Under the pieces are notes generated by a model that was not told the DNA's origin, did not search any database, and saw only the letters and a list, made by a program, of their open reading frames with translations. A stretch of 15,825 nucleotides of DNA. It comes from a virus (Duplodnaviria > Heunggongvirae > Uroviricota > Caudoviricetes). Shown here piece after piece: positions 1-13,458 of this stretch. Positions within the stretch are counted from its first letter, which is position 1. Each line of letters begins with the position of its first letter. The stretch lies in IMG/VR virus record IMGVR_UViG_2778261180_000007. One strand, 5' to 3'. Both the position numbers and the translations under genes were made by a program.

Positions 1-483
1 ATGACGAAGAAAAAAGCACATAAACCTGGTTCAGCGACCATCGCGCTTAACAAGCGCGCCCGTCACGAATACTTTATCGAAGAAGAGTTCGAAGCGGGAC
101 TTGCCCTGCAAGGCTGGGAGGTTAAATCCCTGCGCGCAGGAAAAGCCAATATCAGCGACAGCTACGTCCTTCTGCGTGACGGAGAGGCATTTCTGTTTGG
201 CGCTAACATCACGCCAATGGCCGTGGCCTCCACGCATGTGGTGTGCGATCCTACCCGTACCCGCAAGTTACTTCTCAACCAGCGCGAACTGGACTCATTG
301 TACGGTCGCGTCAATCGAGAAGGCTATACCGTAGTGGCGCTCTCCCTGTACTGGAAAAATGCCTGGTGCAAAGTGAAAATCGGCGTCGCCAAAGGTAAAA
401 AACAGCACGATAAACGTTCAGATATCAAAGAACGCGAATGGCAGGTGGATAAAGCACGTATCATGAAAAACGCCCACCGTTAA
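1..483 (+). CDS. smpB: SsrA-binding protein SmpB
   Basis: 160-aa ORF starting at the ATG at base 1. The translation ([25 protein letters not shown]...) is recognisable as SmpB, and it sits directly upstream of the tmRNA gene as in enterobacteria. Confidence 0.95.
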
Positions 484-646
484 ACCTGCACTCCAATTAT
501 TGACCAGTTCCTCACCGCGCCTCCCTCTCCGGCGGCGCGAATGAACATCTTATTGGCTATCACATCCGACACAAATGTTGCCATCCCATTGCTTAATCGA
601 ATAAAAATCAGGCTACATGGGTGCTAAATCTTTAACGATAACGCCA

Positions 647-690
647 TTGAGGCTGGTCATGGTGCTCATAAATCTGGTATACTTACCTTT
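647..690 (+). promoter_or_regulatory. candidate ssrA promoter
   Basis: Extended -10-like TGgTATACT at 675-683 lies about 15 nt upstream of the mature tmRNA 5' end, consistent with a short 5' leader removed by processing. A TTGAGG hexamer at 647-652 is too far away to be a standard -35. Assigned by eye only. Confidence 0.35.
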
Positions 691-697
691 ACACATT

Positions 698-1060
698 GGG
701 GCTGATTCTGGATTCGACGGGATTTGCGAAACCCAAGGTGCATGCCGAGGGGCGGTTGGCCTCGTAAAAAGCCGCAAAAAATAGTCGCAAACGACGAAAA
801 CTACGCTTTAGCAGCTTAATAACCTGCTTAGAGCCCTCTCTCCCTAGCCTCCGCTCTTAGGACGGGGATCAAGAGAGGTCAAACCCAAAAGAGATCGCGT
901 GGAAGCCCTGCCTGGGGTTGAAGCGTTAAAACTTAATCAGGCTAGTTTGTTAGTGGCGTGTCCGTCCGCAGCTGGCAAGCGAATGTAAAGACTGACTAAG
1001 CATGTAGTACCGAGGATGTAGGAATTTCGGACGCGGGTTCAACTCCCGCCAGCTCCACCA
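698..1060 (+). ncRNA. ssrA: tmRNA (transfer-messenger RNA, SsrA), 363 nt
   Basis: Starts GGGGCTGATTCTGGATTCGACGGG and ends GGTTCAACTCCCGCCAGCTCCACCA (tRNA-like acceptor/T-arm with CCA). Internal tag reading frame GCA AAC GAC GAA AAC TAC GCT TTA GCA GCT TAA at 787-819 encodes (A)ANDENYALAA. Confidence 0.95.
1038..1060. other. attL core: last 23 nt of ssrA (TTCAACTCCCGCCAGCTCCACCA)
   Basis: A P4-type integrase gene follows ssrA directly, and an imperfect copy of this segment recurs at 12922-12943 at the far end of the P4-like gene set. Confidence 0.4.
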
Positions 1061-1093
1061 CTTGCTCTTCCGGATACGTCCGGAGAAATCCTG

Positions 1094-1128
1094 AAAGCCC
1101 GCATGGCACAAGCTCTGCGGGCTTTTTT
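1094..1128 (+). terminator. intrinsic terminator downstream of ssrA
   Basis: GC-rich hairpin AAAGCCCGCA...TGCGGGCTT followed by TTTTTT (1122-1128). Confidence 0.5.
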
Positions 1129-1172
1129 GTGTCTACCGTTGTCCGAGGATATCCAGCTAAATCCAGTGATTA

Positions 1173-1224
1173 TTGGTATACGTTTAGGTATACGGTAGGA
1201 TGTATACCTAAACGCGTATACCAA
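1173..1224. repeat. inverted pair of a 21-bp motif (TTGGTATACGnTTAGGTATAC) upstream of int; candidate integrase arm-type or operator sites
   Basis: TTGGTATACGTTTAGGTATAC at 1173-1193 and its near-perfect reverse complement GTATACCTAAACGCGTATACCAA at 1202-1224. A third copy, TTGGTATACGATTAGGTATAC, lies at 12848-12868 next to the attR-like site. Confidence 0.5.
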
Positions 1225-1244
1225 TTCATGAAGGAACGGCTAAA

Positions 1245-2444
1245 GTGGCAAGAACGACACGCCCCCTGACCAACACAGAAGTTCTGCGCGCTAAAGCGTT
1301 AGAAAAGGATCTAACGTTGCATGATGGCGATGGTCTTTTTCTGCTCGTTAAAACGAACGGTAAGAAGTTATGGCGTTTCCGTTATCAACGTCCAACAACA
1401 AAGCAGCGAACAATGATGGGGCTAGGTGCATTTCCCGCCCTCTCACTTGCTGACGCCCGGCGGTTAAGAGCGGATTACCTTTCCTTGCTAGCCAACGGAA
1501 TTGACCCGCAAATTCAAGCTGAGATTGTAGAGGAACAGCAACAAATTGCACTGGACAGTATTTTTTCAACAGTCGCCGCTAACTGGTTCCAGCTTAAAAG
1601 CAAAAGCGTTACCCCTGATTACGCGAAAGACATTTGGCGTTCACTAGAAAAAGATGTATTCCCTGCCATCGGTGAGATTCCAGTTCAGCAAATCAAAGCC
1701 CGAATGCTTGTTGAAGCCCTAGAGCCAATCAAAGCACGTGGGGCGCTAGAGACGGTACGTCGTCTGGTGCAGCGCATTAATGAGATAATGATTTATGCCG
1801 TAAACACAGGTCTGATTGATGCCAATCCAGCATCAGGTATTGGGATGGCCTTTGAGAAACCTAAAAAGCAAAACATGCTTACTCTCCGGCCAGAAGAATT
1901 ACCGAAGCTGATGCGTTCTTTAATTATGTCTAATCTATCCGTTCCGACACGTTGTCTTATTGAGTGGCAACTACTGACCCTTGTGCGCCCTTCTGAAGCC
2001 TCCGGTACAAGGTGGGCAGAGATCGATCTCGCAGCAAAGGTCTGGACGATTCCACCCGAACGGATGAAGGCCAAGCGTGAGCACATTGTTCCTCTATCTT
2101 CTCAGGCATTAGAAATTCTGGAAGTAATGAAACCAATCAGTGCTCATCGTGAACATGTTTTTCCCAGTAGAAATGACCCGAAACAGTCAATGAATAGCCA
2201 AACTGCTAATGCAGCACTCAAACGCATTGGTTATGGTGGGAAATTAGTTGCTCATGGGTTACGATCCATCGCAAGTACTGCACTCAATGAAGCCGGATTT
2301 AATCCTGATGTAATTGAAGCAGCTCTAGCACATAGTGATAAAAATGAAGTACGAAGAGCTTATAACCGCTCAACGTACCTTAATAAAAGAATAGAACTTA
2401 TGGCATGGTGGGGAAGGTTTGTTTATAAAACAAACCTTTTATAA
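1245..2444 (+). CDS. int: P4-family tyrosine integrase (site-specific recombinase)
   Basis: 399-aa ORF with a GTG start preceded by AAGGA. N-terminal arm-binding-like region (LHDGDGLFLLVKTNGKKLWRFRYQRP) and C-terminal catalytic signature (AHGLRS ... AHSDKNEVRRAYNRSTY) typical of P4-like integrases. Position directly 3' of a tmRNA gene. Confidence 0.9.
   Translation: MARTTRPLTNTEVLRAKALEKDLTLHDGDGLFLLVKTNGKKLWRFRYQRPTTKQRTMMGLGAFPALSLADARRLRADYLSLLANGIDPQIQAEIVEEQQQIALDSIFSTVAANWFQLKSKSVTPDYAKDIWRSLEKDVFPAIGEIPVQQIKARMLVEALEPIKARGALETVRRLVQRINEIMIYAVNTGLIDANPASGIGMAFEKPKKQNMLTLRPEELPKLMRSLIMSNLSVPTRCLIEWQLLTLVRPSEASGTRWAEIDLAAKVWTIPPERMKAKREHIVPLSSQALEILEVMKPISAHREHVFPSRNDPKQSMNSQTANAALKRIGYGGKLVAHGLRSIASTALNEAGFNPDVIEAALAHSDKNEVRRAYNRSTYLNKRIELMAWWGRFVYKTNLL
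2414..2444 (+). terminator. possible terminator hairpin inside the 3' end of int
   Basis: AAGGTTTG (2414-2421) pairs with CAAACCTT (2431-2438) and is followed by TTTTATAA. The int stop (2442-2444) directly abuts the stop of the convergent ATPase gene (2445-2447). Confidence 0.3.
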
Positions 2445-4142
2445 CTATACTTTAAAGAACTTATTTGTCGAAGATAACTCAAGGATCGAGTTACTCATCA
2501 TCATTTTCATGTCCGCATCTTCTGAAAACTTATCACTTAATATTGACACAATATATTGACCATTTATATTATTTGCTTCAAAAAATATATCTCTAATTTG
2601 ATTCACATCGACATCTTCAATGCTATCATGAATAACAAAAGTAGGTCTCTTTAATTTAATCTTATCCACAAACTTAATATAAGCCAAATCAAATGCAGTT
2701 ATTTCACCTTTCTTCTTGCCGCCATTACTGTTTGGTGTAACGCATGATATATCAAAATTACACTTACCTTTATCAACATCAAAGGAAAGATCAAAAATGT
2801 ATCTTTCCCCATATATTTCCTTTGTAAGATCACCAAAAAACTCATTGAAAATCTCGATGTTTTTTTCCAGACCTTGAACTGCTAACTCTATTTCTAAAAG
2901 TAATTTCTCTCGACTATCTTCAAGAGATTTTATAAGGGCATTTGTATCATTAATACGCGAAAGATTAGACTCTATGCTAGCAAGATTTTCACGTAATTCA
3001 GTAAGCTTATTAAATAATTGATTTATAGACTTTAATGTTTCAGGTTCTTTGATTGTTCTAAATAGGGATGATTCTTGTTCATGAAGATCATTGATTTTTT
3101 TATTTACAGTTTCTATTTCTTCTTTTTTCTTTAACAATTCAGATTCTAAAAAACTGATTTTATTCTTAATAATATCATTATGGAACAATACCATTTCTTC
3201 GTAAGTCCTTTTAAGTTCCCCATTAAAATAAATCCCCGCAGAATTATATATTTCCATTAAATCATTTTCTACAAGTTGTGTGATATTATTCTTCAAGGAC
3301 AAGATCGATTCTTCGATATTTCTTACTCGCATATTTAAGGAGGCATAGCTCAAAGAATAATCACTGATATTCTTCTGTATTTCTGAAAGCTTTTTTAAGC
3401 TTTCATCATGACTATCTTTAAAATCGAAGTTCTTAATATTTCTTTCCGCCTCTGCAATTTCTTTCTTCAGAGGCTTAATCATTTTTGCTAAAACAGTCTC
3501 TCTATTTGGATTCCTGTATGCGGCAAGATATGTCTTTTGTTTTTTTATCTCTTTGTTAAAATCACCTTTTTTCTTTATCAGAGGTAACCCATTGAACCCA
3601 AATAAAAACAAGTATAATAGATCATAGACATCAGGAGTCGTATTCCCATGTAAGAAATTAAGCGTTTTCTGCATTTTATCATTCGTGTTTCTAATAAATT
3701 TATGCGAAACATTCCTCAGTGATGGCTTATCTGTAGTTAACCCAAACACTGCTTGAGCTATAAATTCAGAATATTGTTTCTTATCTACTTCAACATCATT
3801 TAAAAAATATTTTGAATTTTTATCATCAATAGATATTATACGTGAAACAACTGCCTTTTTATTTTCTACCGTATTGAAATCCAATGAAAATTTCAAAACA
3901 TTATTATTAATTAACGATACAATTTCAGGTATATCTTTTCCAAACTCTGCATCATGATAAATATCATGACCTGATGACATAAATAAATAATCTAAAACAC
4001 GCGATAATGTGGATTTACCTACACTATTGCCGCTATCTTTGCCTGATGTTCTTTTATTTACAATTAGATTCAGACCGTCTTTAAACGTCACCTCTCTTAC
4101 AAGAGAGTCATTTTTTAAAATAATAAGTTTATTGAGCCTCAT
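2445..4142 (-). CDS. ABC-type (SMC/RecF-like) ATPase with long central coiled-coil; candidate defence-system ATPase
   Basis: 565-aa ORF. N-terminal strand-plus-P-loop layout (LNLIVNKRTSGKDSGNSVGKSTL, Walker A lysine K43). About 300 aa of heptad-like K/E/L/N-rich sequence. C-terminal signature-like SNGGKKKG followed by Walker-B-like TFVIHDSIEDVD. Start overlaps the upstream gene by 14 nt; GGTGGA lies upstream of the ATG. Confidence 0.75.
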   Translation of the reverse strand: MRLNKLIILKNDSLVREVTFKDGLNLIVNKRTSGKDSGNSVGKSTLSRVLDYLFMSSGHDIYHDAEFGKDIPEIVSLINNNVLKFSLDFNTVENKKAVVSRIISIDDKNSKYFLNDVEVDKKQYSEFIAQAVFGLTTDKPSLRNVSHKFIRNTNDKMQKTLNFLHGNTTPDVYDLLYLFLFGFNGLPLIKKKGDFNKEIKKQKTYLAAYRNPNRETVLAKMIKPLKKEIAEAERNIKNFDFKDSHDESLKKLSEIQKNISDYSLSYASLNMRVRNIEESILSLKNNITQLVENDLMEIYNSAGIYFNGELKRTYEEMVLFHNDIIKNKISFLESELLKKKEEIETVNKKINDLHEQESSLFRTIKEPETLKSINQLFNKLTELRENLASIESNLSRINDTNALIKSLEDSREKLLLEIELAVQGLEKNIEIFNEFFGDLTKEIYGERYIFDLSFDVDKGKCNFDISCVTPNSNGGKKKGEITAFDLAYIKFVDKIKLKRPTFVIHDSIEDVDVNQIRDIFFEANNINGQYIVSILSDKFSEDADMKMMMSNSILELSSTNKFFKV

Positions 4143-4362
4143 ATACTATTCCACCATTTCCATCTAACTCAATTGCGCCGATTATGAAAAGCCAATCTAA
4201 TGAGTAAAGAAAAAGATCAAACGATAACTCGAAGATAGAATTTACTAAATCATACAATCGAGATATTTCAATGACCATTGAATCATTACTTTGAAAGATC
4301 CCAAGCACTACACTTCCAATATATACAGGATTTGCTTTTGGATCCGTATCAATTGTAATCAT
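4129..4362 (-). CDS. hypothetical small protein (77 aa) with hydrophobic C-terminal half; operon member
   Basis: ORF preceded by GGAG with 8-nt spacing. Overlaps both neighbours by 14 nt, indicating coupled translation. Hydrophobic segment FDLFLYSLDWLFIIGAIEL. No family recognised. Confidence 0.5.
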   Translation of the reverse strand: MITIDTDPKANPVYIGSVVLGIFQSNDSMVIEISRLYDLVNSIFELSFDLFLYSLDWLFIIGAIELDGNGGIVYEAQ

Positions 4363-4897
4363 TTGGATTCTCCAGCACTATACATTCGATAATAGCATAG
4401 CTAACAATCATACGAATGCCATAATCAATATCTTCCTGTAAAAACTCTGAATCTAAATTAGAACACGAACTAACTGTTTCTTGAGCAGCTCTAATAACAT
4501 CATCTATAATATTATCCGAGTTTTTCCTTATGAGTTCAATGTTAAATGGTTTCTCATAAAGACCATATAATCCCAATGCAGTATTATAATAACCTCTAAA
4601 CTGTCTTTTCAATTTGACACTACCATTTAAAATTATAGCATCAAGTGTTTTTATGGATTCATCAACTAGCAGAGCATCTTCTTTATAAAGTTCAGCTACC
4701 CATCTGTTTCTTTTAAGATCATTGAATTCTATTTTAACATCAATATTTGATGCTATTCTGTTTAAGTTTTGCTCGCTACCAACTGAATTAGAAATAATTT
4801 CAATTAACTTACCAATAACACTGGCTCTTAACATTCTTGGCTGGTTGTTTATATGCACAGGACCAGTATTATTATTGAAATTAACACCAGAACCCAT
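4349..4897 (-). CDS. hypothetical protein (182 aa); operon member
   Basis: ORF preceded by GGGGG. Starts 3 nt after the stop of the upstream small gene. N-terminus carries an NNNTGPVHINN motif that repeats the C-terminus of the upstream protein. No catalytic motif recognised. Confidence 0.65.
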   Translation of the reverse strand: MGSGVNFNNNTGPVHINNQPRMLRASVIGKLIEIISNSVGSEQNLNRIASNIDVKIEFNDLKRNRWVAELYKEDALLVDESIKTLDAIILNGSVKLKRQFRGYYNTALGLYGLYEKPFNIELIRKNSDNIIDDVIRAAQETVSSCSNLDSEFLQEDIDYGIRMIVSYAIIECIVLENPNDYN

Positions 4898-4899
4898 AA

Positions 4900-5172
4900 T
4901 TACCCCCGATTATCAATATTCACAGGACCATTATTATCTTGAAAATATTGAGAACGCGCTCCTTGATTAATGAAGTTTCTATTAGTTGTAATTTTTACAA
5001 TCTGGGAATTAAGATCATTTATTGTAATGTTAAGTTGTTTTATCTCATTATCTTTCTTGGTTACTTGCATAGTCTGATATATTGCTATACATCCAGAGAT
5101 CACCCCAACAATATATCCAAAGGCACTTACATATTCGTTAGCAAGTAGTGATGCAATCATTTGGAGCTCCAT
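4900..5172 (-). CDS. small membrane-anchored protein (90 aa; 86 aa from the alternative ATG at 5160); first gene of the operon
   Basis: Predicted N-terminal transmembrane helix (IASLLANEYVSAFGYIVGVISGCIAIY) followed by a charged helical stretch. The second in-frame ATG at 5160 has a better-placed GGAG. C-terminus NNGPVNIDNRG. Confidence 0.55.
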   Translation of the reverse strand: MELQMIASLLANEYVSAFGYIVGVISGCIAIYQTMQVTKKDNEIKQLNITINDLNSQIVKITTNRNFINQGARSQYFQDNNGPVNIDNRG

Positions 5173-5429
5173 TTCAAGCTGAAAGATTTAAAGTCACAAC
5201 AATCTCATCCTATTAGGGTAGCTAGGATAGCAACTCATGAAGAGTAAATAAATAGGTATTAATCATTATCGTTTACATGATCTAATTCAACATAGATCCA
5301 CTCATGGCCTCTATACTTTCTCATAAACACAGTGTTTAGCTATGTGGGCTTAAGAGGTCTAAATTGATGTACTTACTTTATCAATTGATATAACCCCAAA
5401 TTATAATCGTTTCATATCATTGACGCGCA

Positions 5430-5448
5430 GTGCTTTCCCCGCCTCGCC
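5430..5448 (-). other. cos site: 19-nt cohesive-end sequence GGCGAGGCGGGGAAAGCAC (minus-strand reading)
   Basis: Plus-strand GTGCTTTCCCCGCCTCGCC is the exact reverse complement of the cohesive-end sequence I recall for P2 and P4. It lies between psu and the cargo operon, where cos sits in an integrated P4. Confidence 0.75.
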
Positions 5449-5548
5449 CGCCCGCTTTGCGGGGCGGTTTTAATGCAGTTGCACTGACACGCTCAGACCG
5501 CGCCGGGAATGGCGCGGTCTGCAGAAAATGAGGCAGGGAAACGCATGC

Positions 5549-5582
5549 AAAGCCATGCACCTTATCGATGCATGGCTTTTTT
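5549..5582 (+). terminator. hairpin plus T-tract between cos and the psu 3' end
   Basis: AAAGCCATGCA (5549-5559), loop CCTTATCGA, TGCATGGCTTT (5569-5579), then a T run. May stop read-through into or out of the late operon; orientation of function uncertain. Confidence 0.35.
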
Positions 5583-5612
5583 CAGTAAAAACGGGCGGAT
5601 TTTCGGGGAATT

Positions 5613-6185
5613 TTACACAGACTGACGTGATGCCAGTTGCGCACTTTTACGCGAAAAAATCATGTTCTGCGCAGGGGTGAATTTTTCACGGCTGTCATCC
5701 ACCGAAGCCGCGTCAGGTCTGAATCCAATGGCCGTTAAAATGTCGCTATCCTGTGCGGAATAATTAATTTTTTCACCCTTCGCAAGCCAGGACAGGAGGG
5801 CTTCACGCAGGGCATCTGTGGCACGCTGTATGGCACAGTTTCGGGCAATGGCCGTCAGCTCACTGTAGCCCATCAGCTCCGGTGCCAGTGCCGCCGCCAG
5901 TGCTGTGCCGTGCTGCTGCATAAAATCATTCAGCCGGTCGCGGATGCTGATGTGCTGAACGGCTTCATGCGAACGAATATAACGACCGGCGGCCTGATTC
6001 ACCTGCCATTTTCTGACTTCGATAATATTGCGTAATTCGTCCAGGCGACTGACGTTTCTGCCTTCTCCTGACAGAAGCCGCAGATATTCCTGTTCGGCCG
6101 CAGCCAGCTCATTTTTGCGTTGCAGCCATGCTGCTTTGTTATTCTGACAGGTGTCAAAGGCCTGCTGTAAGGCTGTGCTTTCCAT
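5613..6185 (-). CDS. psu: Psu (polarity suppression / capsid decoration protein), P4-like
   Basis: 190-aa ORF, the size of P4 Psu, last gene of the sid-delta-psu array next to cos. Sequence MESTALQQAFDTCQNN... recognised as Psu-like. Confidence 0.85.
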   Translation of the reverse strand: MESTALQQAFDTCQNNKAAWLQRKNELAAAEQEYLRLLSGEGRNVSRLDELRNIIEVRKWQVNQAAGRYIRSHEAVQHISIRDRLNDFMQQHGTALAAALAPELMGYSELTAIARNCAIQRATDALREALLSWLAKGEKINYSAQDSDILTAIGFRPDAASVDDSREKFTPAQNMIFSRKSAQLASRQSV

Positions 6186-6258
6186 CGTTATCTCTTTCTC
6201 ATCATGCTGAAGAATAAAAATACGGTGTGCGGCGACGGCCGGTGTTAACCGGCAGCCC

Positions 6259-6759
6259 TCATTCCAGACGCAGCGAATATGATTGTGTTTTTAACCGTAC
6301 TGGCGGCAGTTCCTGTTTTTCATGCAGGCTTTCTGCAAGCTCGTCCGGCGTGACCGGGCGGACAATGAAGCGGTTGATGGTCTGAAGCGTTTTAAACACC
6401 AGACCACAGCCCGGATCCGTGCACACATAAAAACGCTCGGTGACTTCCTGAGACAGACGCCGCGATGTTCTTGACAGTGCAAGGCCTTTACATCTCCGAC
6501 AACAATATCCGGTAACAAGCATTCTTTTCGGGCGTTTCATACTGCCGGAGGCTGACGTCAGTGAATCGCGGTATCTCTGTTTGCCTGAAATGTATTCCAT
6601 TCCTGAATCTTTACTGTCAGAGAAAAAGCTTTCACTCGCTTCAAATGTCGCAGAGCAATAAATATTCCGGCACTGTGCAATCATTATCTTGGTGCCATCG
6701 TCCATGAAATGTGCGCGACGGGTGTGAGCAACATGTCCACACGACGGGCAGTAAATCAT
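6259..6759 (-). CDS. delta: Delta, Ogr/Delta-family zinc-finger late-gene activator (tandem Ogr-like repeats)
   Basis: 166-aa ORF with two Ogr-like units, each carrying CPxCGH...C-x-N-x-x-C(S)ATF-type Cys motifs (MIYCPSCGHVAHTRR...QCRNIYCSATF and ...CRRCKG...CTDPGCGLVF). ATGA overlap with the sid stop. Confidence 0.85.
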   Translation of the reverse strand: MIYCPSCGHVAHTRRAHFMDDGTKIMIAQCRNIYCSATFEASESFFSDSKDSGMEYISGKQRYRDSLTSASGSMKRPKRMLVTGYCCRRCKGLALSRTSRRLSQEVTERFYVCTDPGCGLVFKTLQTINRFIVRPVTPDELAESLHEKQELPPVRLKTQSYSLRLE

Positions 6760-7490
6760 GACAGCAGTCCTCTGGCCTTAAGCTCTGCTCCCTGCTGGTC
6801 TATTTTGTCCTGCCACACCTTGCGCTGTGCCGGTGTGCCTGCCACCTCATAATCCATGTGCGGGAGTGTTGCCGCTGACAGTCCGGTCAGCCGGAGAACC
6901 GGCTCACCGGTGAGGCTGATTTGCATCTGTTTTATTTTCTGTTCCAGCGATGATTTCACCTGCTGCATGACAGCCTTTTCCGGTGCGACGTAGCCCTGAT
7001 GGCCGGTGGTGTTGGCGAGCGGATTTTCCTGTACCAGGATGCTCAGATGCATTGCCCGGACAAGCACCTCACAGGTTTCATTCAGGGCGTGTTCCAGCTC
7101 ATGCTCTGCATACAGACTCAGAAGGTGATGATGTGCCTTCCGGTAGGCGGTGGCCGTGCTGTCACACGCCCCTTTCAGGCGTTCACGTTCAAAATTCAGC
7201 ACCACGGCCAGATTGTCATATTCCTGTACCAGCTCCCGGCGTGCCACGCGCTCAATGTGGCGCTGTTTCAGCTCGTCGCTCAGGACACCACCGGCTGCAC
7301 GAAAGGCCGTGCGCCAGTCGTCAGCGTCGTTTCCGTCGGCCTGCGCCAGCGCATTTTTTTCCTGCTCTGCCCGTTCAATGGCCGTGACGGTCTCATCCAT
7401 CAGGCGGGCGTTCTCAAGATGGGCGGCTCTGGCCTTTTCCAGTTGTGCCAGCGCGGGTTGCAGATATTCAGGGATGGTGTTGTCAGACAT
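6756..7490 (-). CDS. sid: Sid (capsid size determination, external scaffold), P4-like
   Basis: 244 aa from the ATG at 7490, which is preceded by AGGAG (MSDNTIPEYLQPALAQ...). The ORF track's earlier ATG at 7556 lacks a Shine-Dalgarno and would overlap the promoter region. Confidence 0.8.
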   Translation of the reverse strand: MSDNTIPEYLQPALAQLEKARAAHLENARLMDETVTAIERAEQEKNALAQADGNDADDWRTAFRAAGGVLSDELKQRHIERVARRELVQEYDNLAVVLNFERERLKGACDSTATAYRKAHHHLLSLYAEHELEHALNETCEVLVRAMHLSILVQENPLANTTGHQGYVAPEKAVMQQVKSSLEQKIKQMQISLTGEPVLRLTGLSAATLPHMDYEVAGTPAQRKVWQDKIDQQGAELKARGLLS

Positions 7491-7562
7491 TTTCCGGCTC
7501 CTCGTCACTTCAGGTTGAGAAAATTGTGACGTACACCGGACAACAACACGACGCATTGCAGA

Positions 7563-7580
7563 TGTGCCAGCCCTGACACA
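7563..7580 (-). promoter_or_regulatory. candidate Delta/Ogr activator site (TGT-N12-ACA) of the sid late promoter
   Basis: TGTGCCAGCCCTGACACA. Its centre is about 82 bp upstream of the sid ATG, compatible with a dyad centred near -55 and a ~27-nt leader. Confidence 0.35.
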
Positions 7581-7659
7581 GGAGACTCATCCTCAGACCG
7601 GCAAGCCAGGAAAAGGTCGCAGGAAAAACCGGCTTACTGTTTGTTTTTTTATATTTTAC

Positions 7660-7763
7660 TGTTCACCTCTGTTCACCATAAGAAAAAAGATAAGTAATAC
7701 AGTAAGTTAAAGGGTGAACAATCGCAGTAATGACTGTTCACCGTCTGTTCACCACTGTTCACC
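7660..7763. repeat. iteron cluster: six copies of the P4 type-I octamer TGTTCACC; candidate alpha-binding origin
   Basis: TGTTCACC at 7660-7667, 7670-7677, 7735-7742, 7746-7753 and 7756-7763; inverted copy GGTGAACA at 7713-7720. Flanked by a T-rich tract (7641-7657). Lies between the divergent sid and vis promoters. Confidence 0.7.
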
Positions 7764-7922
7764 CGTTGATGGGCTTTTTGTGCTGTTTATTACTGTTTGT
7801 TTTTATTAATTCGCCGGGAATGAATAAGAAAAAACGATTTGTATTTCACTATAAAAATTACGAATTGCTTTAAGTGGCTTTAAATGACTTTAAGTGGAGA
7901 TGAACAAAAAACACACAAGCAT

Positions 7923-7940
7923 TGTAAGGCTGCCGGAACA
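7923..7940 (+). promoter_or_regulatory. candidate Delta-dependent late-left promoter activator site (TGT-N12-ACA) upstream of vis
   Basis: TGTAAGGCTGCCGGAACA. Centre is about 111 bp upstream of the vis ATG, and about 395 bp upstream of the putative early promoter. Confidence 0.3.
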
Positions 7941-8042
7941 AATCCCCCCTGTTGCGTCTGCTGAAAATATTCACAAAATAAAACGCTACCCGAAGCCGGA
8001 CGGACTTATCCGGTGCTGTATGGACATTAACGAGGTAGCCCG

Positions 8043-8309
8043 ATGCAAGCTGTTTTTTCTTCCCCGTCTCCTGCCCCTGTGACGCCACTGATGCCGCTGC
8101 CGGACATCACACAGGAGCGTTTTTTACGTCTGCCGGAAGTGATGCACCTGTGCGGCCTGTCACGCTCGACCATCTATGAACTCATCCGTAAGGGGGAATT
8201 TCCGCCGCAGGTGAGTCTTGGCGGTAAAAATGTGGCCTGGCTGCACTCTGAAGTCACCGCATGGATGGCCGGCCGCATTGCCGGACGCAAACGGGGGTAT
8301 GACGCATGA
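8043..8309 (+). CDS. vis: Vis/AlpA-family DNA-binding regulator (excision and late-transcription control)
   Basis: 88-aa ORF, the size of P4 orf88/Vis. AlpA-type helix-turn-helix core [48 protein letters not shown] lies 7 nt upstream of the ATG. Confidence 0.8.
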
Positions 8310-8896
8310 TGATGCCCGCTCTGCAAAAACTCCCTTTTTCTGGCTTGCCTTTTTCCGGCATTTGCGGATATAGTTTTTCCGTTGCCGCAAAATCGGCAGC
8401 CGGGCGTGAGAACCCGTGTAACTCGAAGGCGACATATGACGCGCCATGCGTCTTTTTTTGTGTCGCAATCAACGCCACAGAGCGCCAGATTATGGTGTGG
8501 CGTGTGGTTTGCCGTGCAGGTATGATCCTGTTCGCAATCGCATGTTATGCCACTGAGTCAATGGTAGCTCAGGCGGGGCAGCCTCCGGGCTGGCCGGTAT
8601 TCTTCGAGGCCGGTATTCTCACCCCCGTCTGGGCTATCGCCATCGAGCGTGAGAACTCCGGCGATAGCAGTTATTTGCTACTCGAAGGAGGCTGCCTTAT
8701 GGCTACAACCCTTACCCCCTCACACCCTGAATTTGTCTTTGTGTTTGCGGCTGTCCGTCGCGCAGACCGTCATCCCCGTATCTGTATGCTTCGCACCGTC
8801 GCCGGTGATGAACGCAGTGCCCGCCGTTCCCTTGTCCGTGACTATGTGCTCTCCCTTGCTGCCCGTCTGCCGGTGGTGGAGGTGTCCCGTGCGTAA
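8306..8896 (+). CDS. eta: eta-like long ORF (194-196 aa, three consecutive ATGs) enclosing kil and spanning the immunity region
   Basis: Open frame from an ATGATGATG start that overlaps the vis stop (ATGA). Matches my recollection of P4 eta: about 197 codons, three candidate start codons, kil nested in the same frame at the 3' end. Coding status itself is uncertain. Confidence 0.4.
8345..8374 (+). promoter_or_regulatory. candidate early promoter (PLE-like)
   Basis: TTGCCT (8345-8350), 18-bp spacer, TATAGT (8369-8374); alternative -10 GATATA with 16-bp spacer. Lies just upstream of seqA. Confidence 0.3.
8406..8687 (+). promoter_or_regulatory. P4-type RNA immunity region: seqA (8406-8428), seqB within a candidate CI RNA (8602-8622), seqC (8649-8687)
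   Basis: seqA GTGAGAA...CTCGAAG and seqC GTGAGAA...CTCGAAG are each complementary to seqB CTTCGAG...TTCTCAC (reverse complement GTGAGAAtaccggcCTCGAAG). seqC runs into the GGAGG Shine-Dalgarno of kil. Confidence 0.45.
8699..8896 (+). CDS. kil: Kil-like small protein (65 aa)
   Basis: ATG at 8699 preceded by GGAGG that overlaps seqC. 65 codons, the size I recall for P4 Kil. Shares frame and stop with eta. Confidence 0.5.
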
Positions 8897-9176
8897 TAAA
8901 AAAGCCCCTCAGACCGTCTCAGCACGTCATGACGCCCGTGAACACCTCAGCATTGAGGCTTACCATAAGCTCAACCGCGCCAGCGCCGTATCCCAGTTTG
9001 TTGGGGGTGATTTGATTCACCGTGAACTCTCCGGCCTGCATCAGCTCTACATTCCGCATATTTTCAGCTACCTGAATGAAGATATTGATTTTGTGCTGAA
9101 TGAGCTGAAAGCCAAAGGCCTGTGCCGCGATTTTCTCGCCCAGCAGAAAGACCGGGGAGACAGGACGCATGTTTGA
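8889..9176 (+). CDS. Eps-like protein (95 aa), candidate helper-derepression factor
   Basis: GTG start at 8889 preceded by GGAGG and overlapping the kil stop. Stop overlaps the start of the orf151-like gene. Assignment is by position and size relative to P4 epsilon. The ORF track's longer form (from 8649) lies in the immunity region. Confidence 0.5.
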
Positions 9177-9624
9177 TTTTCCCCAGCCCGGTGAGATTTA
9201 CCGTTCTGCCGGTTTTCCCGATGTGGCCGTAGTCGGCATTCTGGAAGACGGTATTCCGTGGGAAATGCCGTACCGCTGCCCGGACATTGTCTGGAACCCG
9301 TACCGCCGTAAATTCAGTATTCTTGTGCGTATCCTCGCCGACGGGCGCACCACAGACATCCCGCTGGGGCGTTTTCTGCGGGAATTTACCTGTGACCGTC
9401 CTGACCTGTTTAAACGCAGCCCCGTAAACCGGCATGCGGTACTGAAAGAAATGGCCGGAGACCCGGAATTACAGAAATGGCGGGAGAAATATCTGGATAT
9501 TTACCCGCAGGAGCCTGTTCCGGTCAGCCGGGCGGCACCGGTGGCGCGGGAATGGCGGGAAATTCCCCGCACGGAGCCTGACCCGGAAATCACCCCGGAT
9601 AACAGTTACCGCAATTATCTGTAA
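9169..9624 (+). CDS. P4 orf151-like hypothetical protein (151 aa)
   Basis: Size and position (between eps and alpha) match P4 orf151. Start overlaps the upstream stop. Confidence 0.7.
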   Translation: MFDFPQPGEIYRSAGFPDVAVVGILEDGIPWEMPYRCPDIVWNPYRRKFSILVRILADGRTTDIPLGRFLREFTCDRPDLFKRSPVNRHAVLKEMAGDPELQKWREKYLDIYPQEPVPVSRAAPVAREWREIPRTEPDPEITPDNSYRNYL

Positions 9625-9759
9625 TTAAAAAACGACACCCGAAAAATTAAATGTGCGTATTCGCGCAGGGATACGCACGTCTTCAGGAGACGCAGATATG
9701 CCTTATCAGTTAATGCAACCGGCACGGAATGCAGTCATCTGTCACAGGGAGGAAAGCAA

Positions 9760-10080
9760 ATGAAAACACCCTTACCGCCCGTCTTACGCGCTGCCCTTTA
9801 CCGTCGCGCTGTCGCCTGTGCCTGGCTGACCGTGTGCGAACGTCAGCACCGCTACCCGCATCTCACCCTTGAGTCACTGGAGGCGGCCATCGCCGCTGAG
9901 CTGGAAGGCTTTTATCTGCGCCAGCACGGTGAGGAAAAAGGGCGTCAGATAGCCTGTGCCCTGCTGGAAGATTTAATGGAATCCGGCCCCCTGAAGGCCG
10001 CGCCGTCGCTGTCCTTTCTCGGGCTGGTTGTGATGGATGAACTCTGTGCCCGTCACATAAAAGCGCCGGTACTGCACTGA
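9760..10080 (+). CDS. P4 orf106-like hypothetical protein (106 aa)
   Basis: GGGAGG lies 7 nt upstream of the ATG. Sits directly upstream of alpha. A 21-codon upstream ORF overlaps its start. Confidence 0.65.
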
Positions 10081-10094
10081 AGGAGAACAACACC

Positions 10095-12428
10095 ATGAAA
10101 ATGAACGTAACCGCCACCGTCAGCCATGCACTCGGCCACTGGCCGCGTATTCTCCCGGCGCTGGGGATTCAGGTGCTGAAAAACCGTCATCAGCCCTGTC
10201 CGGTCTGTGGCGGGAGTGACCGCTTCCGTTTTGATGACAGGGAGGGGCGCGGCACCTGGTACTGCAATCAGTGTGGTGCCGGTGACGGCCTGAAACTGGT
10301 TGAAAAGGTGTTTGGTGTTTCCCCGTCCGACGCGGCCGCAAAGGTGGCTGCCGTGACCGGCAGCCTGCCCCCGGCTGACCCGGCAGTGACGGCCGCCGCC
10401 GGTGCTGAAACAGACGCTGCCCGGAAGAACGCCGCCGCACTGGCACAAACCCTGATGGCAAAAACCCGTCCCGGAACCGGTAACGCCTACCTGACCCGCA
10501 AGGGCTTTCCCGGCCGGGAATGCCGGATGCTGACCGGCACACACAGAGCCGGTGGCGTGAGCTGGCGCGCCGGTGACCTTGTGGTGCCACTGTATGACGA
10601 CAGCGGCGAACTGGTTAACCTTCAGTTAATCAGTGCTGACGGCCGTAAGCGCACCCTGAAAGGCGGACAGGTCAGGGGCACCTGTCACATCCTTGAAGGA
10701 CAGAATCAGGCCGGAAAACGTCTGTGGATAGCGGAGGGATACGCGACCGCACTTACCGTGCATCACCTGACCGGTGAAACGGTGATGGTGGCGCTTTCTT
10801 CCGTGAATCTCCTTTCTCTGGCCAGCCTTGCCCGGCAGAAGCATCCGGCCTGTCAGATTGTCCTTGCTGCTGACCGTGACCTCAGCGGTGACGGCCAGAA
10901 AAAAGCCGCCGCAGCCGCAGATGCGTGTGAAGGTGTTGTTGCCCTGCCGCCGGTCTTCGGTGACTGGAATGATGCCTTCACGCAGTACGGCGGGGAAGCC
11001 ACCCGTAAGGCCATTTATGATGCCATCCGGCCACCGGCTGAAAGCCCGTTCGACACCATGAGCGAAGCGGAGTTTTCCGCCATGAGTACCAGCGAAAAGG
11101 CCATGCGTATCTATGAGCATTACGGCGAGGCGCTCGCGGTTGATGCCAACGGCCAGCTTCTGTCCCGTTATGAAAATGGTGTCTGGAAGGTGCTGCCACC
11201 ACAGGACTTTGCCCGGGATGTGGCCGGGCTGTTTCAGCGGCTGCGCGCGCCGTTCTCCTCCGGGAAGGTGGCCTCCGTGGTGGACACCCTGAAGCTGATT
11301 ATTCCGCAGCAGGAAGCCCCCTCCCGCCGCCTGATTGGCTTTCGTAACGGCGTGCTCGACACGCAGAACGGCACGTTCCACCCGCACAGTCCGTCACACT
11401 GGATGCGCACCCTGTGCGATGTGGATTTCACCCCACCGGTGGAAGGGGAAACGCTGGAAACCCACGCCCCCGCGTTCTGGCGCTGGCTTGACCGTGCCGC
11501 CGGTGGCCGTGCGGAAAAACGCGACGTGATTCTGGCCGCACTGTTTATGGTGCTGGCAAACCGCTATGACTGGCAGCTCTTTCTGGAGGTGACCGGTCCC
11601 GGCGGAAGCGGCAAAAGTATCATGGCCGAAATAGCCACCCTGCTGGCCGGGGAGGATAACGCCACGTCGGCCACCATTGAGACGCTGGAATCCCCGCGTG
11701 AACGTGCCGCGTTAACTGGCTTCTCACTGATACGCCTGCCGGACCAGGAAAAATGGAGCGGCGACGGAGCCGGACTCAAGGCCATCACCGGCGGCGATGC
11801 AGTGTCCGTTGACCCGAAATACCGGGATGCGTACTCCACGCACATCCCGGCGGTGATTCTGGCCGTGAACAATAACCCGATGCGCTTCACCGACCGCAGC
11901 GGCGGCGTGTCACGCCGGCGGGTGATTATTCACTTCCCGGAACAGATAGCCCCGCAGGAGCGCGACCCGCAACTTAAGGACAAAATCACCCGCGAGCTGG
12001 CGGTCATCGTGCGTCACCTGATGCAGAAGTTCAGCGACCCGATGCTCGCCCGGTCACTGCTTCAGTCCCAGCAGAACTCAGACGAGGCACTGAACATCAA
12101 ACGGGATGCCGACCCGACGTTTGATTTTATCGGCTATCTGGAAACCCTGCCGCAGACCAGCGGCATGTATATGGGGAACGCCAGTATCATCCCGCGTAAC
12201 TACCGTAAATACCTCTATCACGCCTATCTGGCCTACATGGAGGCAAACGGCTACCGGAATGTACTCAGTCTGAAAATGTTCGGGCTGGGGCTGCCGGTGA
12301 TGCTGAAGGAATACGGGCTGAATTACGAGAAGCGCCATACCAAACAGGGGATACAGACCAACCTGACGCTGAAAGAGGAAAGCTACGGCGACTGGCTGCC
12401 AAAATGTGACGACCCTGCAACAACCTGA
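10095..12428 (+). CDS. alpha: Alpha: P4-type primase-helicase replication protein
   Basis: 777 aa, the size of P4 alpha. AGGAG Shine-Dalgarno. N-terminal zinc motif CPVCGGSDRFRFDD...CNQCG. Toprim-like EGYATAL and AADRD. Helicase Walker A VTGPGGSGKS. Iteron arrays lie on both sides. Confidence 0.9.
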   Translation: MKMNVTATVSHALGHWPRILPALGIQVLKNRHQPCPVCGGSDRFRFDDREGRGTWYCNQCGAGDGLKLVEKVFGVSPSDAAAKVAAVTGSLPPADPAVTAAAGAETDAARKNAAALAQTLMAKTRPGTGNAYLTRKGFPGRECRMLTGTHRAGGVSWRAGDLVVPLYDDSGELVNLQLISADGRKRTLKGGQVRGTCHILEGQNQAGKRLWIAEGYATALTVHHLTGETVMVALSSVNLLSLASLARQKHPACQIVLAADRDLSGDGQKKAAAAADACEGVVALPPVFGDWNDAFTQYGGEATRKAIYDAIRPPAESPFDTMSEAEFSAMSTSEKAMRIYEHYGEALAVDANGQLLSRYENGVWKVLPPQDFARDVAGLFQRLRAPFSSGKVASVVDTLKLIIPQQEAPSRRLIGFRNGVLDTQNGTFHPHSPSHWMRTLCDVDFTPPVEGETLETHAPAFWRWLDRAAGGRAEKRDVILAALFMVLANRYDWQLFLEVTGPGGSGKSIMAEIATLLAGEDNATSATIETLESPRERAALTGFSLIRLPDQEKWSGDGAGLKAITGGDAVSVDPKYRDAYSTHIPAVILAVNNNPMRFTDRSGGVSRRRVIIHFPEQIAPQERDPQLKDKITRELAVIVRHLMQKFSDPMLARSLLQSQQNSDEALNIKRDADPTFDFIGYLETLPQTSGMYMGNASIIPRNYRKYLYHAYLAYMEANGYRNVLSLKMFGLGLPVMLKEYGLNYEKRHTKQGIQTNLTLKEESYGDWLPKCDDPATT

Positions 12429-12440
12429 CCCTCATGACTC

Positions 12441-12800
12441 ATCTGACCGGCATCTGCCGGTCTTTTTTCATCCCTGAATCCCCCGAAGGTGAACAATCCA
12501 CTGTTCACCCTTCACCGTATATTCACCCGTTATCACACTGAAATTAAAAGAGAAAAATGAAAGGTGAACAGTGTGAACAATCAAATCAAAAAAAACTTTT
12601 TTCTCCCTGTGTGATTTCAGTACGGGGGATTAATCACCGGTATGAGTCACACCGGCAGAATGCCGGAGGTGAAGAATCGAATGTTCACCCTTCACCCATT
12701 ATTCACCACCTATCAAACTGAAATAAAAGGAGAAAAAAGAAAGATGAACAGTGTGAACAGTTCTTCCGAAAAAAAATTTTTTTCCTGTACGATATAGCAT
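12441..12800. repeat. two tandem ~180-bp imperfect direct repeats with TGTTCACC/GGTGAACA iterons and A8/T6-7 tracts; cis-replication-region-like
   Basis: Unit 1: GGTGAACA 12488-12495, TGTTCACC 12502-12509, degenerate copies 12510-12528, GGTGAACA 12563-12570, GTGAACA 12573-12579, A8cT6 12588-12602. Unit 2 repeats this 180 bp later (TGTTCACC 12682-12689, A8T7 12769-12783). Each unit begins with a CCGGCA...TGCCGG hairpin. Confidence 0.65.
12445..12468 (+). terminator. intrinsic terminator of the alpha (left) operon
   Basis: GACCGGCA, loop TC, TGCCGGTC, then TTTTTT, 17 nt after the alpha stop. Confidence 0.55.
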
Positions 12801-12847
12801 CAATCCAAGTAAAAATGCGCTTTCATTTCACATTAACTTACAGCCAT

Positions 12848-12868
12848 TGGTATACGATTAGGTATACA
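12848..12868. repeat. third copy of the 21-bp TTGGTATACGnTTAGGTATAC motif (candidate arm-type site)
   Basis: TTGGTATACGATTAGGTATAC, 54 bp before the attR-like sequence. Confidence 0.4.
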
Positions 12869-12921
12869 CACAAAAACTGAATTAAACAAAATCATTAAAA
12901 ATCAAAGCAATACAATATTTA

Positions 12922-12943
12922 TTCAAACTCCGCCAGCCCACCA
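12922..12943. other. attR-like degenerate copy of the ssrA 3' end (TTCAAACTCCGCCAGCCCACCA)
   Basis: Aligns to the attL core TTCAACTCCCGCCAGCTCCACCA with three single-base indels. Lies immediately beyond the last P4-like feature and before the chromosomal autotransporter gene. Confidence 0.35.
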
Positions 12944-13070
12944 ATCATGATTGGACGGTATAAGGACAACACCAATAAAAACAGGAAGTTAGCAGTCTCA
13001 GCAGGACACCGACCAGACGGTGAAGAGACATAAAAGGATACGCAAAGGAGCCGCGGCTCCTGGTGACATG

Positions 13071-13094
13071 AAAGCCCACAGATGTGGGCTTTTT
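13071..13094. terminator. hairpin with T-tract just 3' of the autotransporter gene (orientation ambiguous)
   Basis: AAAGCCCACA, loop GAT, GTGGGCTTT, then TTT; A-rich on the other side, so possibly bidirectional. Confidence 0.35.
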
Positions 13095-13103
13095 CGTTGA
13101 TGG

Positions 13104-13430
13104 TCAGAACGACCAGTTCACACCAGCTACCCCGTTCCACGGGGATTCCACACCGGCACCATGGCTATACCCCACCCCAAGATGCCCGCTTAACGTACTG
13201 CTGAATGAGGCTTTAATACCTGCCTGGTATATTCCACGTCTGCCCGACAAATCATTGACAAAATTACCGTCACTATTCACTTTCACCCGATTATCATCGA
13301 CAAATTCTTTGCGCACAGCCGCCTTCAGGCAGGGTTCAATTTCCATACCGTTCCCCAGACGCATGTTGTAACTCAGCGTTGCACCCAGTTCACGATATAA
13401 ACTGCGGGTATCGACTGATTTCGATTCCAT
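13104..13430 (-). CDS. autotransporter C-terminal beta-barrel segment (108 aa), in a different frame from the upstream passenger ORF
   Basis: Ends ...GVAGVNWSF with a terminal aromatic residue, typical of outer-membrane beta-barrel C-termini. Separated from the passenger ORF by a stop and a frame change at 13431-13461. Confidence 0.5.
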   Translation of the reverse strand: MESKSVDTRSLYRELGATLSYNMRLGNGMEIEPCLKAAVRKEFVDDNRVKVNSDGNFVNDLSGRRGIYQAGIKASFSSTLSGHLGVGYSHGAGVESPWNGVAGVNWSF

Positions 13431-13458
13431 GCCATTGGATAAATGATATTCAGGGTTA

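Follow-up and report, generated by a model that had tools for sequence, protein, structure and literature searches.

A P4-type satellite prophage in the tmRNA gene

We analyzed a 15,825-nt stretch of DNA (IMG/VR record IMGVR_UViG_2778261180_000007; hereafter, the window) that carries a satellite prophage related to phage P4, inserted at the 3′ end of ssrA, the gene of transfer-messenger RNA (tmRNA). Its host part is Escherichia coli DNA: smpB (positions 1–483) is followed by ssrA, and after the insert of 11.9 kb comes ypjA, an autotransporter gene that is broken. The coordinates of all features are collected in Table 1. The ssrA gene is followed, at the far end of the insert, by a second, 22-nt copy of its 3′ end, TTCAAACTCCGCCAGCCCACCA. 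Compared to the corresponding end of the gene, TTCAACTCCCGCCAGCTCCACCA, this copy has three single-base indels (+A, −C, and −T).

The right boundary of the insert was located by comparison with the island-free strain EC7518, in which ssrA is directly joined to ATCATGATTGGACGG..., the sequence that starts in the window at position 12944; the next 60 nt are identical (60/60). Since the empty site continues at window position 12944, the right junction is at 12943/12944. A blastn search with window positions 12800–13100 matched 4266 E. coli genomes, most of them only from the ssrA-end copy onward, and many of these matches overlap annotated ssrA, which is the empty-site configuration. An exact 30-mer across the right end of the element and the T-less copy is present in 70 of 5426 complete E. 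coli genomes; therefore, the missing T is not a sequencing error of the window. The repeat is a real att duplication, not a chance match. An original prediction, made from the letters of the window, had described an insertion in ssrA bracketed by the 3′ end of the gene and an imperfect 22-nt copy with three indels that ends at 12943, and both the bracketing and the boundary were borne out.

When the window was compared to phage records by megablast, a single 7,334-bp alignment to satellite phage P4 was obtained, with 97.7% nucleotide identity (window positions 5449–12782 correspond to P4 11624–4291). In P4 (X51522/NC_001609), the aligned segment spans cos, psu, delta, sid, ori, vis, CI RNA, epsilon, orf151, orf106, alpha, and crr, and the gene order is kept. 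Measured between equivalent core positions, the element is 11,884 bp long versus 11,624 bp for P4. All seven core components that define P4-like satellites of Type A (de Sousa & Rocha) were found (int, psu, delta, sid, alpA/vis, epsilon, and alpha), and six of them are 98 to 100% identical to those of P4 by tblastn, the int gene being a different allele. The arrangement matches the canonical order int-(hotspot)-psu-delta-sid-alpA-epsilon-alpha, in which att separates alpha from int, and is colinear with P4. The insert is an intact, complete P4-type satellite prophage, with cos, ori, crr, and CI RNA present. Completeness had also been claimed in the original prediction, where the genes were said to match those of P4 in size; that statement is true but understates the likeness, which extends to the sequence at both the nucleotide and protein levels.

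Block exchange of the integration module

Identity to P4 stops ~25 bp past the cos cut on one side and, on the other, precisely at the outer crr boundary (P4 4291). Between these points, P4 positions 26–4290, which include gop, beta, cII, and int as well as attP for leuX and its arm repeats, are replaced as a block by window positions 12783–12943 and 1061–5423. The integrase encoded in the new block has all the expected catalytic residues within its motifs (R248, H337, R340, H363, and Y373) and is 62% identical to IntA of CP4-57, a cryptic prophage of K-12, and 35% identical to P4 Int. As had been proposed, the integrase is of a non-P4 allele, and the integration module was exchanged; the breakpoints read directly from the alignment show that it was swapped in one piece. 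Integrase exchange among P4-like satellites is documented (PMC8628076).

Both att arms of the new module contain the repeat GGTATAC, which occurs seven times in the window versus 0.86 expected, six of the copies being located within the arms. These repeats look like arm-type integrase sites and are candidates for this role. The seventh copy (positions 676–682) lies outside the element, 16 nt upstream of the ssrA 5′ end, and is probably there by chance. The intrinsic terminator carried by the element next to attL is kept, according to alignment, across the left arms of four different ssrA islands (this one, CP4-57, and two others).

A Vis-binding motif common to the new att arms, P4 attP, and the Psid/PLL region was also sought, and only TAAGTTAA was found, with weak statistics: its count of three in the window was reached in 2 of 200 shuffles. 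In the window, it is present at 12833–12840 (the new P arm) and 7703–7710 (the Psid/PLL-ori region); in P4, one copy (4109–4116) is separated by 12 bp from the attP core, and another (9363–9370) occupies the corresponding place in ori. It is a possible candidate for a motif recognized by Vis.

Two of the three attR differences belong to attP

When IMG/VR was searched with the integrase, 80 loci were obtained, their relatives being 85 to 100% identical. Among them is a 10,182-bp P4-like contig (L031/L093; IMG/VR UViG_2600255186_000010) with a related integrase, whose ends abut inside alpha, so that it is circularly closed. Its free attP, ATTCAGACTCCGCCAGCTCCACCACTTGCTC, could be read directly (...TTATTCAGACTCCGCCAGCTCCACCACTTGCTCTTCCGG...); the two left differences are present, and T is kept. 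Since this attP shows both the extra base, located in the T-loop copy, and the missing C, both are native to attP in this integrase clade. Consistent with this, all ten IntA-type right ends examined (the window, ECC-1470, MCJCHV-1, mip270_05, JNEC-KY175, L008, L051, L065, K-12 CP4-57, and L093) read ATTCA(A/G)ACTCCGCCAGC. Two of the three attR indels, +A and −C, are the element's own attP left arm and lie outside the core.

Other searches for attP yielded less. Exact-pattern scans of IMG/VR and metagenome contigs gave no matches; the first pattern ended ...CAAACTCC and so missed L031/L093 (...CAGACTCC), which was recovered through the integrase search instead. A search for attP in plasmids (PLSDB) produced only two weak matches, both of chromosomal size. 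The L093 contig comes from an isolate genome and, with its intact attP, looks like an episomal or excised satellite, although P4-like elements are reported not to occur as plasmids.

The uninterrupted identity between attP and ssrA is one 15-bp block, CCGCCAGCTCCACCA. The original prediction had considered a core restricted to a split GCCAGC/CCACCA, and this idea can be dropped.

The third difference varies among E. coli genomes

The remaining attR difference, −T, was examined at the right ends of related islands. On the ATCATGATTGG flank, one P4-like right end precedes three alleles of the half-site: TCCACCA in MCJCHV-1, -CCACCA in the window, and -----CA in 14EC029, which matches the window best overall. 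Since the same satellite right end stands beside an intact, a ΔT, and a 5-nt-deleted half-site, the boundary between element and chromosome in attR lies within CCGCCAGC. The T-less half-site with the window's flank is found behind CP4-57 of K-12 as well. In KL53 (L091), the T-less half-site follows a perfect long ssrA copy that ends a P2-like prophage, and in DTU-1, a laboratory strain without CP4-57, it is joined straight to ssrA. When the 5426 complete E. coli genomes were searched with exact words, the IntA-type arm on the ATCATGATTGG flank was counted with ~578 ΔT, 94 5-nt-deleted, and 54 intact half-sites, and the P4-like right end specifically with 70 ΔT half-sites and 54 with T, these being numbers of genomes rather than of independent events and inflated by clonal groups and K-12 derivatives. 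To judge from these comparisons, the −T indel is a lesion that is polymorphic and affects the half-site derived from the chromosome; it is the same allele as the published ΔT357 attR of K-12 CP4-57. For this integrase, we infer that strand exchange most likely takes place in the first 8 bp of the core, CCGCCAGC.

Long T-less copies of the ssrA end were found in 25 genomes. That all of these are mutant ssrA genes was considered and rejected, with only three of them annotated as ssrA. Inspection of four showed that the copy in KL53 is attR of the P2-like prophage, while those in NCTC9088, SK0832, and DTU-1 are true T-less ssrA. SK0832 (L094, 2670–3031) is island-free, and the possibility that it represents a scar left by natural excision was evaluated. 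On its downstream side, CCACCAAATAATGAT is joined to TGGACGG in a hybrid junction; therefore, it is not a clean scar, and this candidate was set aside. Having a true ssrA gene without U357, NCTC9088 and SK0832, neither of them a laboratory strain, are presumably tmRNA-deficient.

The same site also houses other arrangements. One and the same tandem pair, in which this P4-like element is followed by a second integrase island, has three different internal junctions in three strains (L089 9019–9100, L004 6133–6215, and L090 21908–21990): T-less, T-bearing, and with a small deletion. In the latter, CCACCA and the first bases of the left arm of the second island are gone. P2-like, helper-type prophages also use this ssrA site, with a much longer identity block (from ...GTATGTAGGAATTTCGG), and form tandems with P4-like satellites in which helper and satellite are neighbors (L008 3772–8440, L091 (KL53), and L086). 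The P4-like element of L008 is internally deleted, with ~4.5 kb left.

Proposed route of integration and consequence of excision

We favor the following reading, to which we assign a probability of roughly 75%: the element is a mosaic P4 satellite prophage that entered ssrA within its last 15 bp, attR consists of the attP arm and a chromosomal T-less half, and excision would inactivate tmRNA. The hijacking, immunity, and replication half is P4 proper, and the segment from cos around to crr contributes the IntA-type integrase, its own attP, and an ABC-3C-type cargo. Entry would have occurred by site-specific recombination within CCGCCAGCTCCACCA, with strands most likely exchanged in CCGCCAGC. 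The last 7 to 15 nt of the window's ssrA are supplied by the element, which, with exchange in this position, would now provide the last 7 nt of the gene, the CCA end, and the terminator. Upon precise excision, the T-less half would rejoin ssrA, U357 would be deleted, and tmRNA would be inactivated. The excision products expected from this reading are an attB ...GCCAGCCCACCAATCATG and an attP ...GCCAGCTCCACCACTTGC.

To follow the outcome, a crossover in CCGCCAGC was simulated on the window. It gave ...GCCAGCCCACCAATCATG (...CCCGCCAGCCCACCAATCATG), from which ARAGORN built only a shifted acceptor stem lacking G:U. U357 is the U of the acceptor-stem G3:U wobble pair read by alanyl-tRNA synthetase (AlaRS). 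Here, attL is intact, and the attR half-site, which lacks U357, is identical to K-12 attR. Excision of CP4-57 deletes T357 of ssrA according to Onodera et al. 2022 (PMC10107115), which cites Wang 2009 on this point. The ΔU357 tmRNA has no trans-translation activity, and ΔCP4-57 is synthetically lethal with ΔarfA and derepresses ArfA (Onodera et al. 2022, PMC10107115). In Shewanella, Zeng et al. 2016 (PMC5148205) found the same one-base loss from ssrA by sequencing once CP4So had been excised. Displaced ends CGCCAGC-CCACCA and CGCCAGC-----CA are given for several ssrA islands of different species in Table 1 of Onodera et al. 2022, which cites Williams 2003. By analogy, precise excision of the satellite in the window should probably inactivate tmRNA.

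The alternatives account for the imperfect attR in other ways. One of the explanations offered in the original prediction is an old insertion; such an insertion, decaying into a fixed remnant without recombination ability, would have accumulated three random attR indels. It would agree with the lesions of displaced half-sites (ΔT here and the 5-nt deletion in 14EC029) and with the broken neighboring gene ypjA, but two of the indels are intrinsic to the attP arm, being present in the free circular attP and at every IntA-type right end examined. Furthermore, all core genes are intact and 98 to 100% P4-like, as are cos, crr, and the arm repeats, and many strains carry the same element in chromosomal settings that differ, which implies recent mobility. 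The element is neither old nor decayed by these marks, and we consider decay very unlikely. Another, improbable possibility is that the element's attP itself lacks T and that exchange takes place in the terminal CCACCA, so that excision would restore ssrA and carry the T-less copy away. This would explain why the T-less copy is found behind IntA-type right ends even where the left arm of another island comes next (mip270_05, L008, L051, and L065). However, T is present in the one free attP that was recovered for the clade; ECC-1470 contains the same island pair as mip270_05 but with T present; and the T-less half is also seen after a P2-like prophage and, in DTU-1, in direct continuation of ssrA. 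CP4-57 excision experimentally leaves ΔT357 in the chromosome, and crossover in CCACCA would have just 6 bp of shared sequence to use for the window's arm. The least probable explanation, in our view, is an overlap segment that spans the T, with heteroduplexes between T and T-less strands resolved either way and the alleles scattered over attL, internal, and attR junctions. Both alleles are indeed seen whatever the kind of junction, even in identical pairs of islands, but heterology in the overlap generally blocks tyrosine recombinases, and an overlap could hardly accommodate the 5-nt deletion of the half-site that follows the same right end.

Several observations weigh against exchange in CCGCCAGC followed by loss of U357 as a full account. 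The T-less junctions between two islands, listed above for four loci, are among them. A strict rule, according to which crossover is always 5′ of the T and the allele travels with the right side, was tried and rejected: by itself, it does not account for T-less internal junctions, which would require additional events. NCTC9088 (L092, 3670–4031) has a true ssrA without T beside a CP4-57-like arm, its integrase being split by IS3. The ΔT allele is found on at least two flank haplotypes and may have arisen more than once. Vis is of the P4 allele (98.9%) and is only 36% identical to AlpA, the partner of IntA, which makes the fit between recombination directionality factor (RDF) and integrase putative. 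Last, excision and its effect on tmRNA were demonstrated for CP4-57, not for this element. The exceptional junctions could reflect strands occasionally exchanged 3′ of the T, the action of other integrases, deletions that recurred, or an overlap spanning the T.

If the favored reading is extended, the damaged half-site (ΔT or 5-nt-deleted) may belong to the chromosome and not to the tenant, with tmRNA function conditional on occupancy of the site. An addiction-like ratchet could then keep the ssrA site occupied and drive replacement of its tenants, an idea that we regard as possible but on balance doubtful. A leaving element would take along the only good ssrA 3′ end, and an incoming element with a good attP would repair the gene, so that CP4-57, P4 satellites, and P2-like helpers would replace one another serially. 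If this is true, helper induction of the P4 satellite would switch the host from trans-translation to ArfA rescue.

Cargo, immunity region, and flanking sequences

In place of P4 gop-beta-cII, the hotspot between int and cos/psu harbors a four-gene cargo (2445–5172, minus strand). An ATPase and the ABC-3C middle component MC6 are present, and an effector component is not identifiable; the cargo is putatively a defence-type cassette of the ABC-3C kind. A PADLOC scan of the 182-aa protein gave no match. The psu-int position is a documented defence hotspot of P4-like satellites (PMC9122126). This particular cargo (DUF2326/MC6) is not mentioned in the main texts that were searched.

The cos region common to P2-like phages extends over about 5424–5487, and matches to cos regions of the P2 family identify it as a P2-type packaging site. 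The psu-delta-sid genes (5613–7490, minus strand) constitute the operon for capsid size and helper transactivation. P4 vis/ORF88 encodes an excisionase that is also a late regulator.

Of all 172 differences from P4, 34 fall in the most diverged bin (8401–8600), which overlaps the RNA immunity region. Both targets, seqA and seqC, which are TTCACAGG in P4, read CTCGAAGG in the window, and seqB of the CI RNA reads CTTCGAG(G) instead of CCTGTGAA. The changes in seqA, seqB, and seqC match each other, and pairing between the targets and CI RNA is therefore kept. Heteroimmunity to P4 is probable for the element.

At 12941–12954, across the native ssrA CCA end and its flank, lies a perfect palindrome of 14 bp, CCAATCATGATTGG, which is mimicked by several left arms associated with integrase variants (CCACCAAATCATGATCCGG). 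Downstream of attR, ypjA (13104–15561, minus strand) is split into open reading frames (ORFs) of 108 aa (beta-barrel) and 700 aa; its homologue in 14EC029 is a pseudogene according to RefSeq annotation.

Table 1. Features of the satellite prophage and of its flanks in the window.
Feature	Position	Strand	Evidence and remarks
ssrA (tmRNA gene)	698–1060	+	Intact, full length; tag ANDENYALAA; ARAGORN and Rfam RF00023 (295.8 bits)
attL copy as delimited in the original prediction	1038–1060	+	TTCAACTCCCGCCAGCTCCACCA
Core shared with attP, within attL copy	1046–1060	+	CCGCCAGCTCCACCA, 15 bp
Likely crossover segment in attL	1046–1053	+	CCGCCAGC
Element-borne intrinsic terminator	1094–1128	+	Stem AAAGCCCGCA/TGCGGGCTTT, then T run; now ends the ssrA transcript
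P′ arm, candidate arm-type integrase sites	1173–1225		Four GGTATAC (two direct, two inverted)
Tyrosine integrase, IntA/CP4-57 type	1245–2444	+	399 aa; Arm-DNA-bind_3 (PF13356), Phage_int_M (PF22022), Phage_integrase (PF00589)
ABC/SMC-like ATPase, DUF2326	2445–4142	−	565 aa; PF10088 (1.3e-17); PADLOC PDC-M68B candidate (1.2e-45), LmuB-like
ABC-3C middle component MC6	4129–4362	−	77 aa; PF20293 (4.4e-13; 49.5 bits, cut-off 27.2)
182-aa protein	4349–4897	−	CTD10 match of 18.1 bits, below cut-off of 28.1
90-aa protein	4900–5172	−	Small protein of the cargo
cos, P2/P4 19-nt cohesive end	5430–5448	−	GGCGAGGCGGGGAAAGCAC; exact match to first 19 nt of P4, abuts P4 right end
psu	5613–6185	−	98.9% to P4 (tblastn); Pfam Psu
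delta	6259–6759	−	98.2% to P4 (tblastn); Pfam Ogr_Delta
sid	6756–7490	−	99.2% to P4 (tblastn)
Psid/PLL promoter and ori region	7491–8042		~P4 9030–9582 by the colinear 97.7% alignment; annotated P4 ori, 9086–9809
vis/alpA (ORF88), AlpA-family helix-turn-helix protein	8043–8309	+	98.9% to P4 ORF88; Pfam Phage_AlpA; 36% to CP4-57 AlpA
RNA immunity region	8368–8688	+	Rfam C4, c4-a1b1, isrK; alignment to P4
seqA target	8420–8429	+	Within immunity region
CI/C4 antisense RNA	8557–8644	+	seqB inside, at 8602–8609
seqC target	8679–8688	+	Within immunity region
epsilon	8889–9176	+	98.9% to P4 (tblastn)
orf151	9169–9624	+	98.0% to P4 (tblastn)
orf106	9760–10080	+	100% to P4 (tblastn)
alpha primase-helicase	10095–12428	+	99.1% to P4 (tblastn)
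crr	12483–12782		Two 120-bp direct repeats with TGTTCACC-type iterons, both present
P arm, candidate arm-type integrase sites	12847–12867	+	TTGGTATACGATTAGGTATAC; two GGTATAC; equals 1173–1193 at 20/21 positions
attR	12922–12943	+	Composite of element-derived and chromosome-derived parts
Element-derived part of attR	12922–12937	+	TTCAAACTCCGCCAGC
Shared, likely crossover segment in attR	12930–12937	+	CCGCCAGC, last 8 nt of element-derived part
Chromosome-derived half of attR	12938–12943	+	CCACCA, without the preceding T (U357)
Displaced native ssrA 3′ flank	12944–13095	+	Own terminator at 13070–13095; contiguous with ssrA in island-free strains

Significance and comparison with known systems

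For annotation, our results imply that the imperfect attR is no ground for calling this satellite defective or for shifting its boundary: two of the differences come with attP, and the third is an allele of the chromosome that is already known and widespread. They may also link a helper-inducible P4 satellite to the excision-dependent tmRNA switch, previous demonstrations of which are limited to two cryptic islands, CP4-57 and CP4So. Added interest comes from what appears to be a fully equipped, helper-mobilizable P4 in a configuration that would make its loss costly to the host. The half-site alleles offer a natural series in this respect: loss of the satellite should be harmless with an intact half-site and costly with the ΔT or 5-nt-deleted ones.

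Where P4 has gop-beta-cII-int-attP (leuX), this element has an IntA-type integrase, an ssrA-specific attP, and the ABC-3C cargo. With CP4-57, it shares the target (the last 15 bp of ssrA), a 62% identical integrase, a homologous attR left arm (ATTCAGACTCCGCCAGC), an identical T-less half-site and chromosomal flank, and a left arm supplying a homologous ssrA terminator. CP4-57 differs in being a 22-kb degraded island without P4 hijacking genes, and its RDF, AlpA, is 36% identical to Vis of the window.

CP4So and other ssrA islands listed with damaged displaced 3′ ends have P4-type integrases, and both of their attR variants are also found behind this P4-like element in E. coli. They differ in their hosts and cargo and, as far as the tabulated descriptions go, none is a bona fide P4 satellite. 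The P4-like satellites described by de Sousa & Rocha 2021 and Rousset et al. 2022 have the same core order, variable cargo on the cos side, and integrases of a different history. Each component of the element in the window thus has a precedent: the swapped integrase and the hotspot cargo among P4-like satellites, and the ΔU357 attR in an ssrA island.

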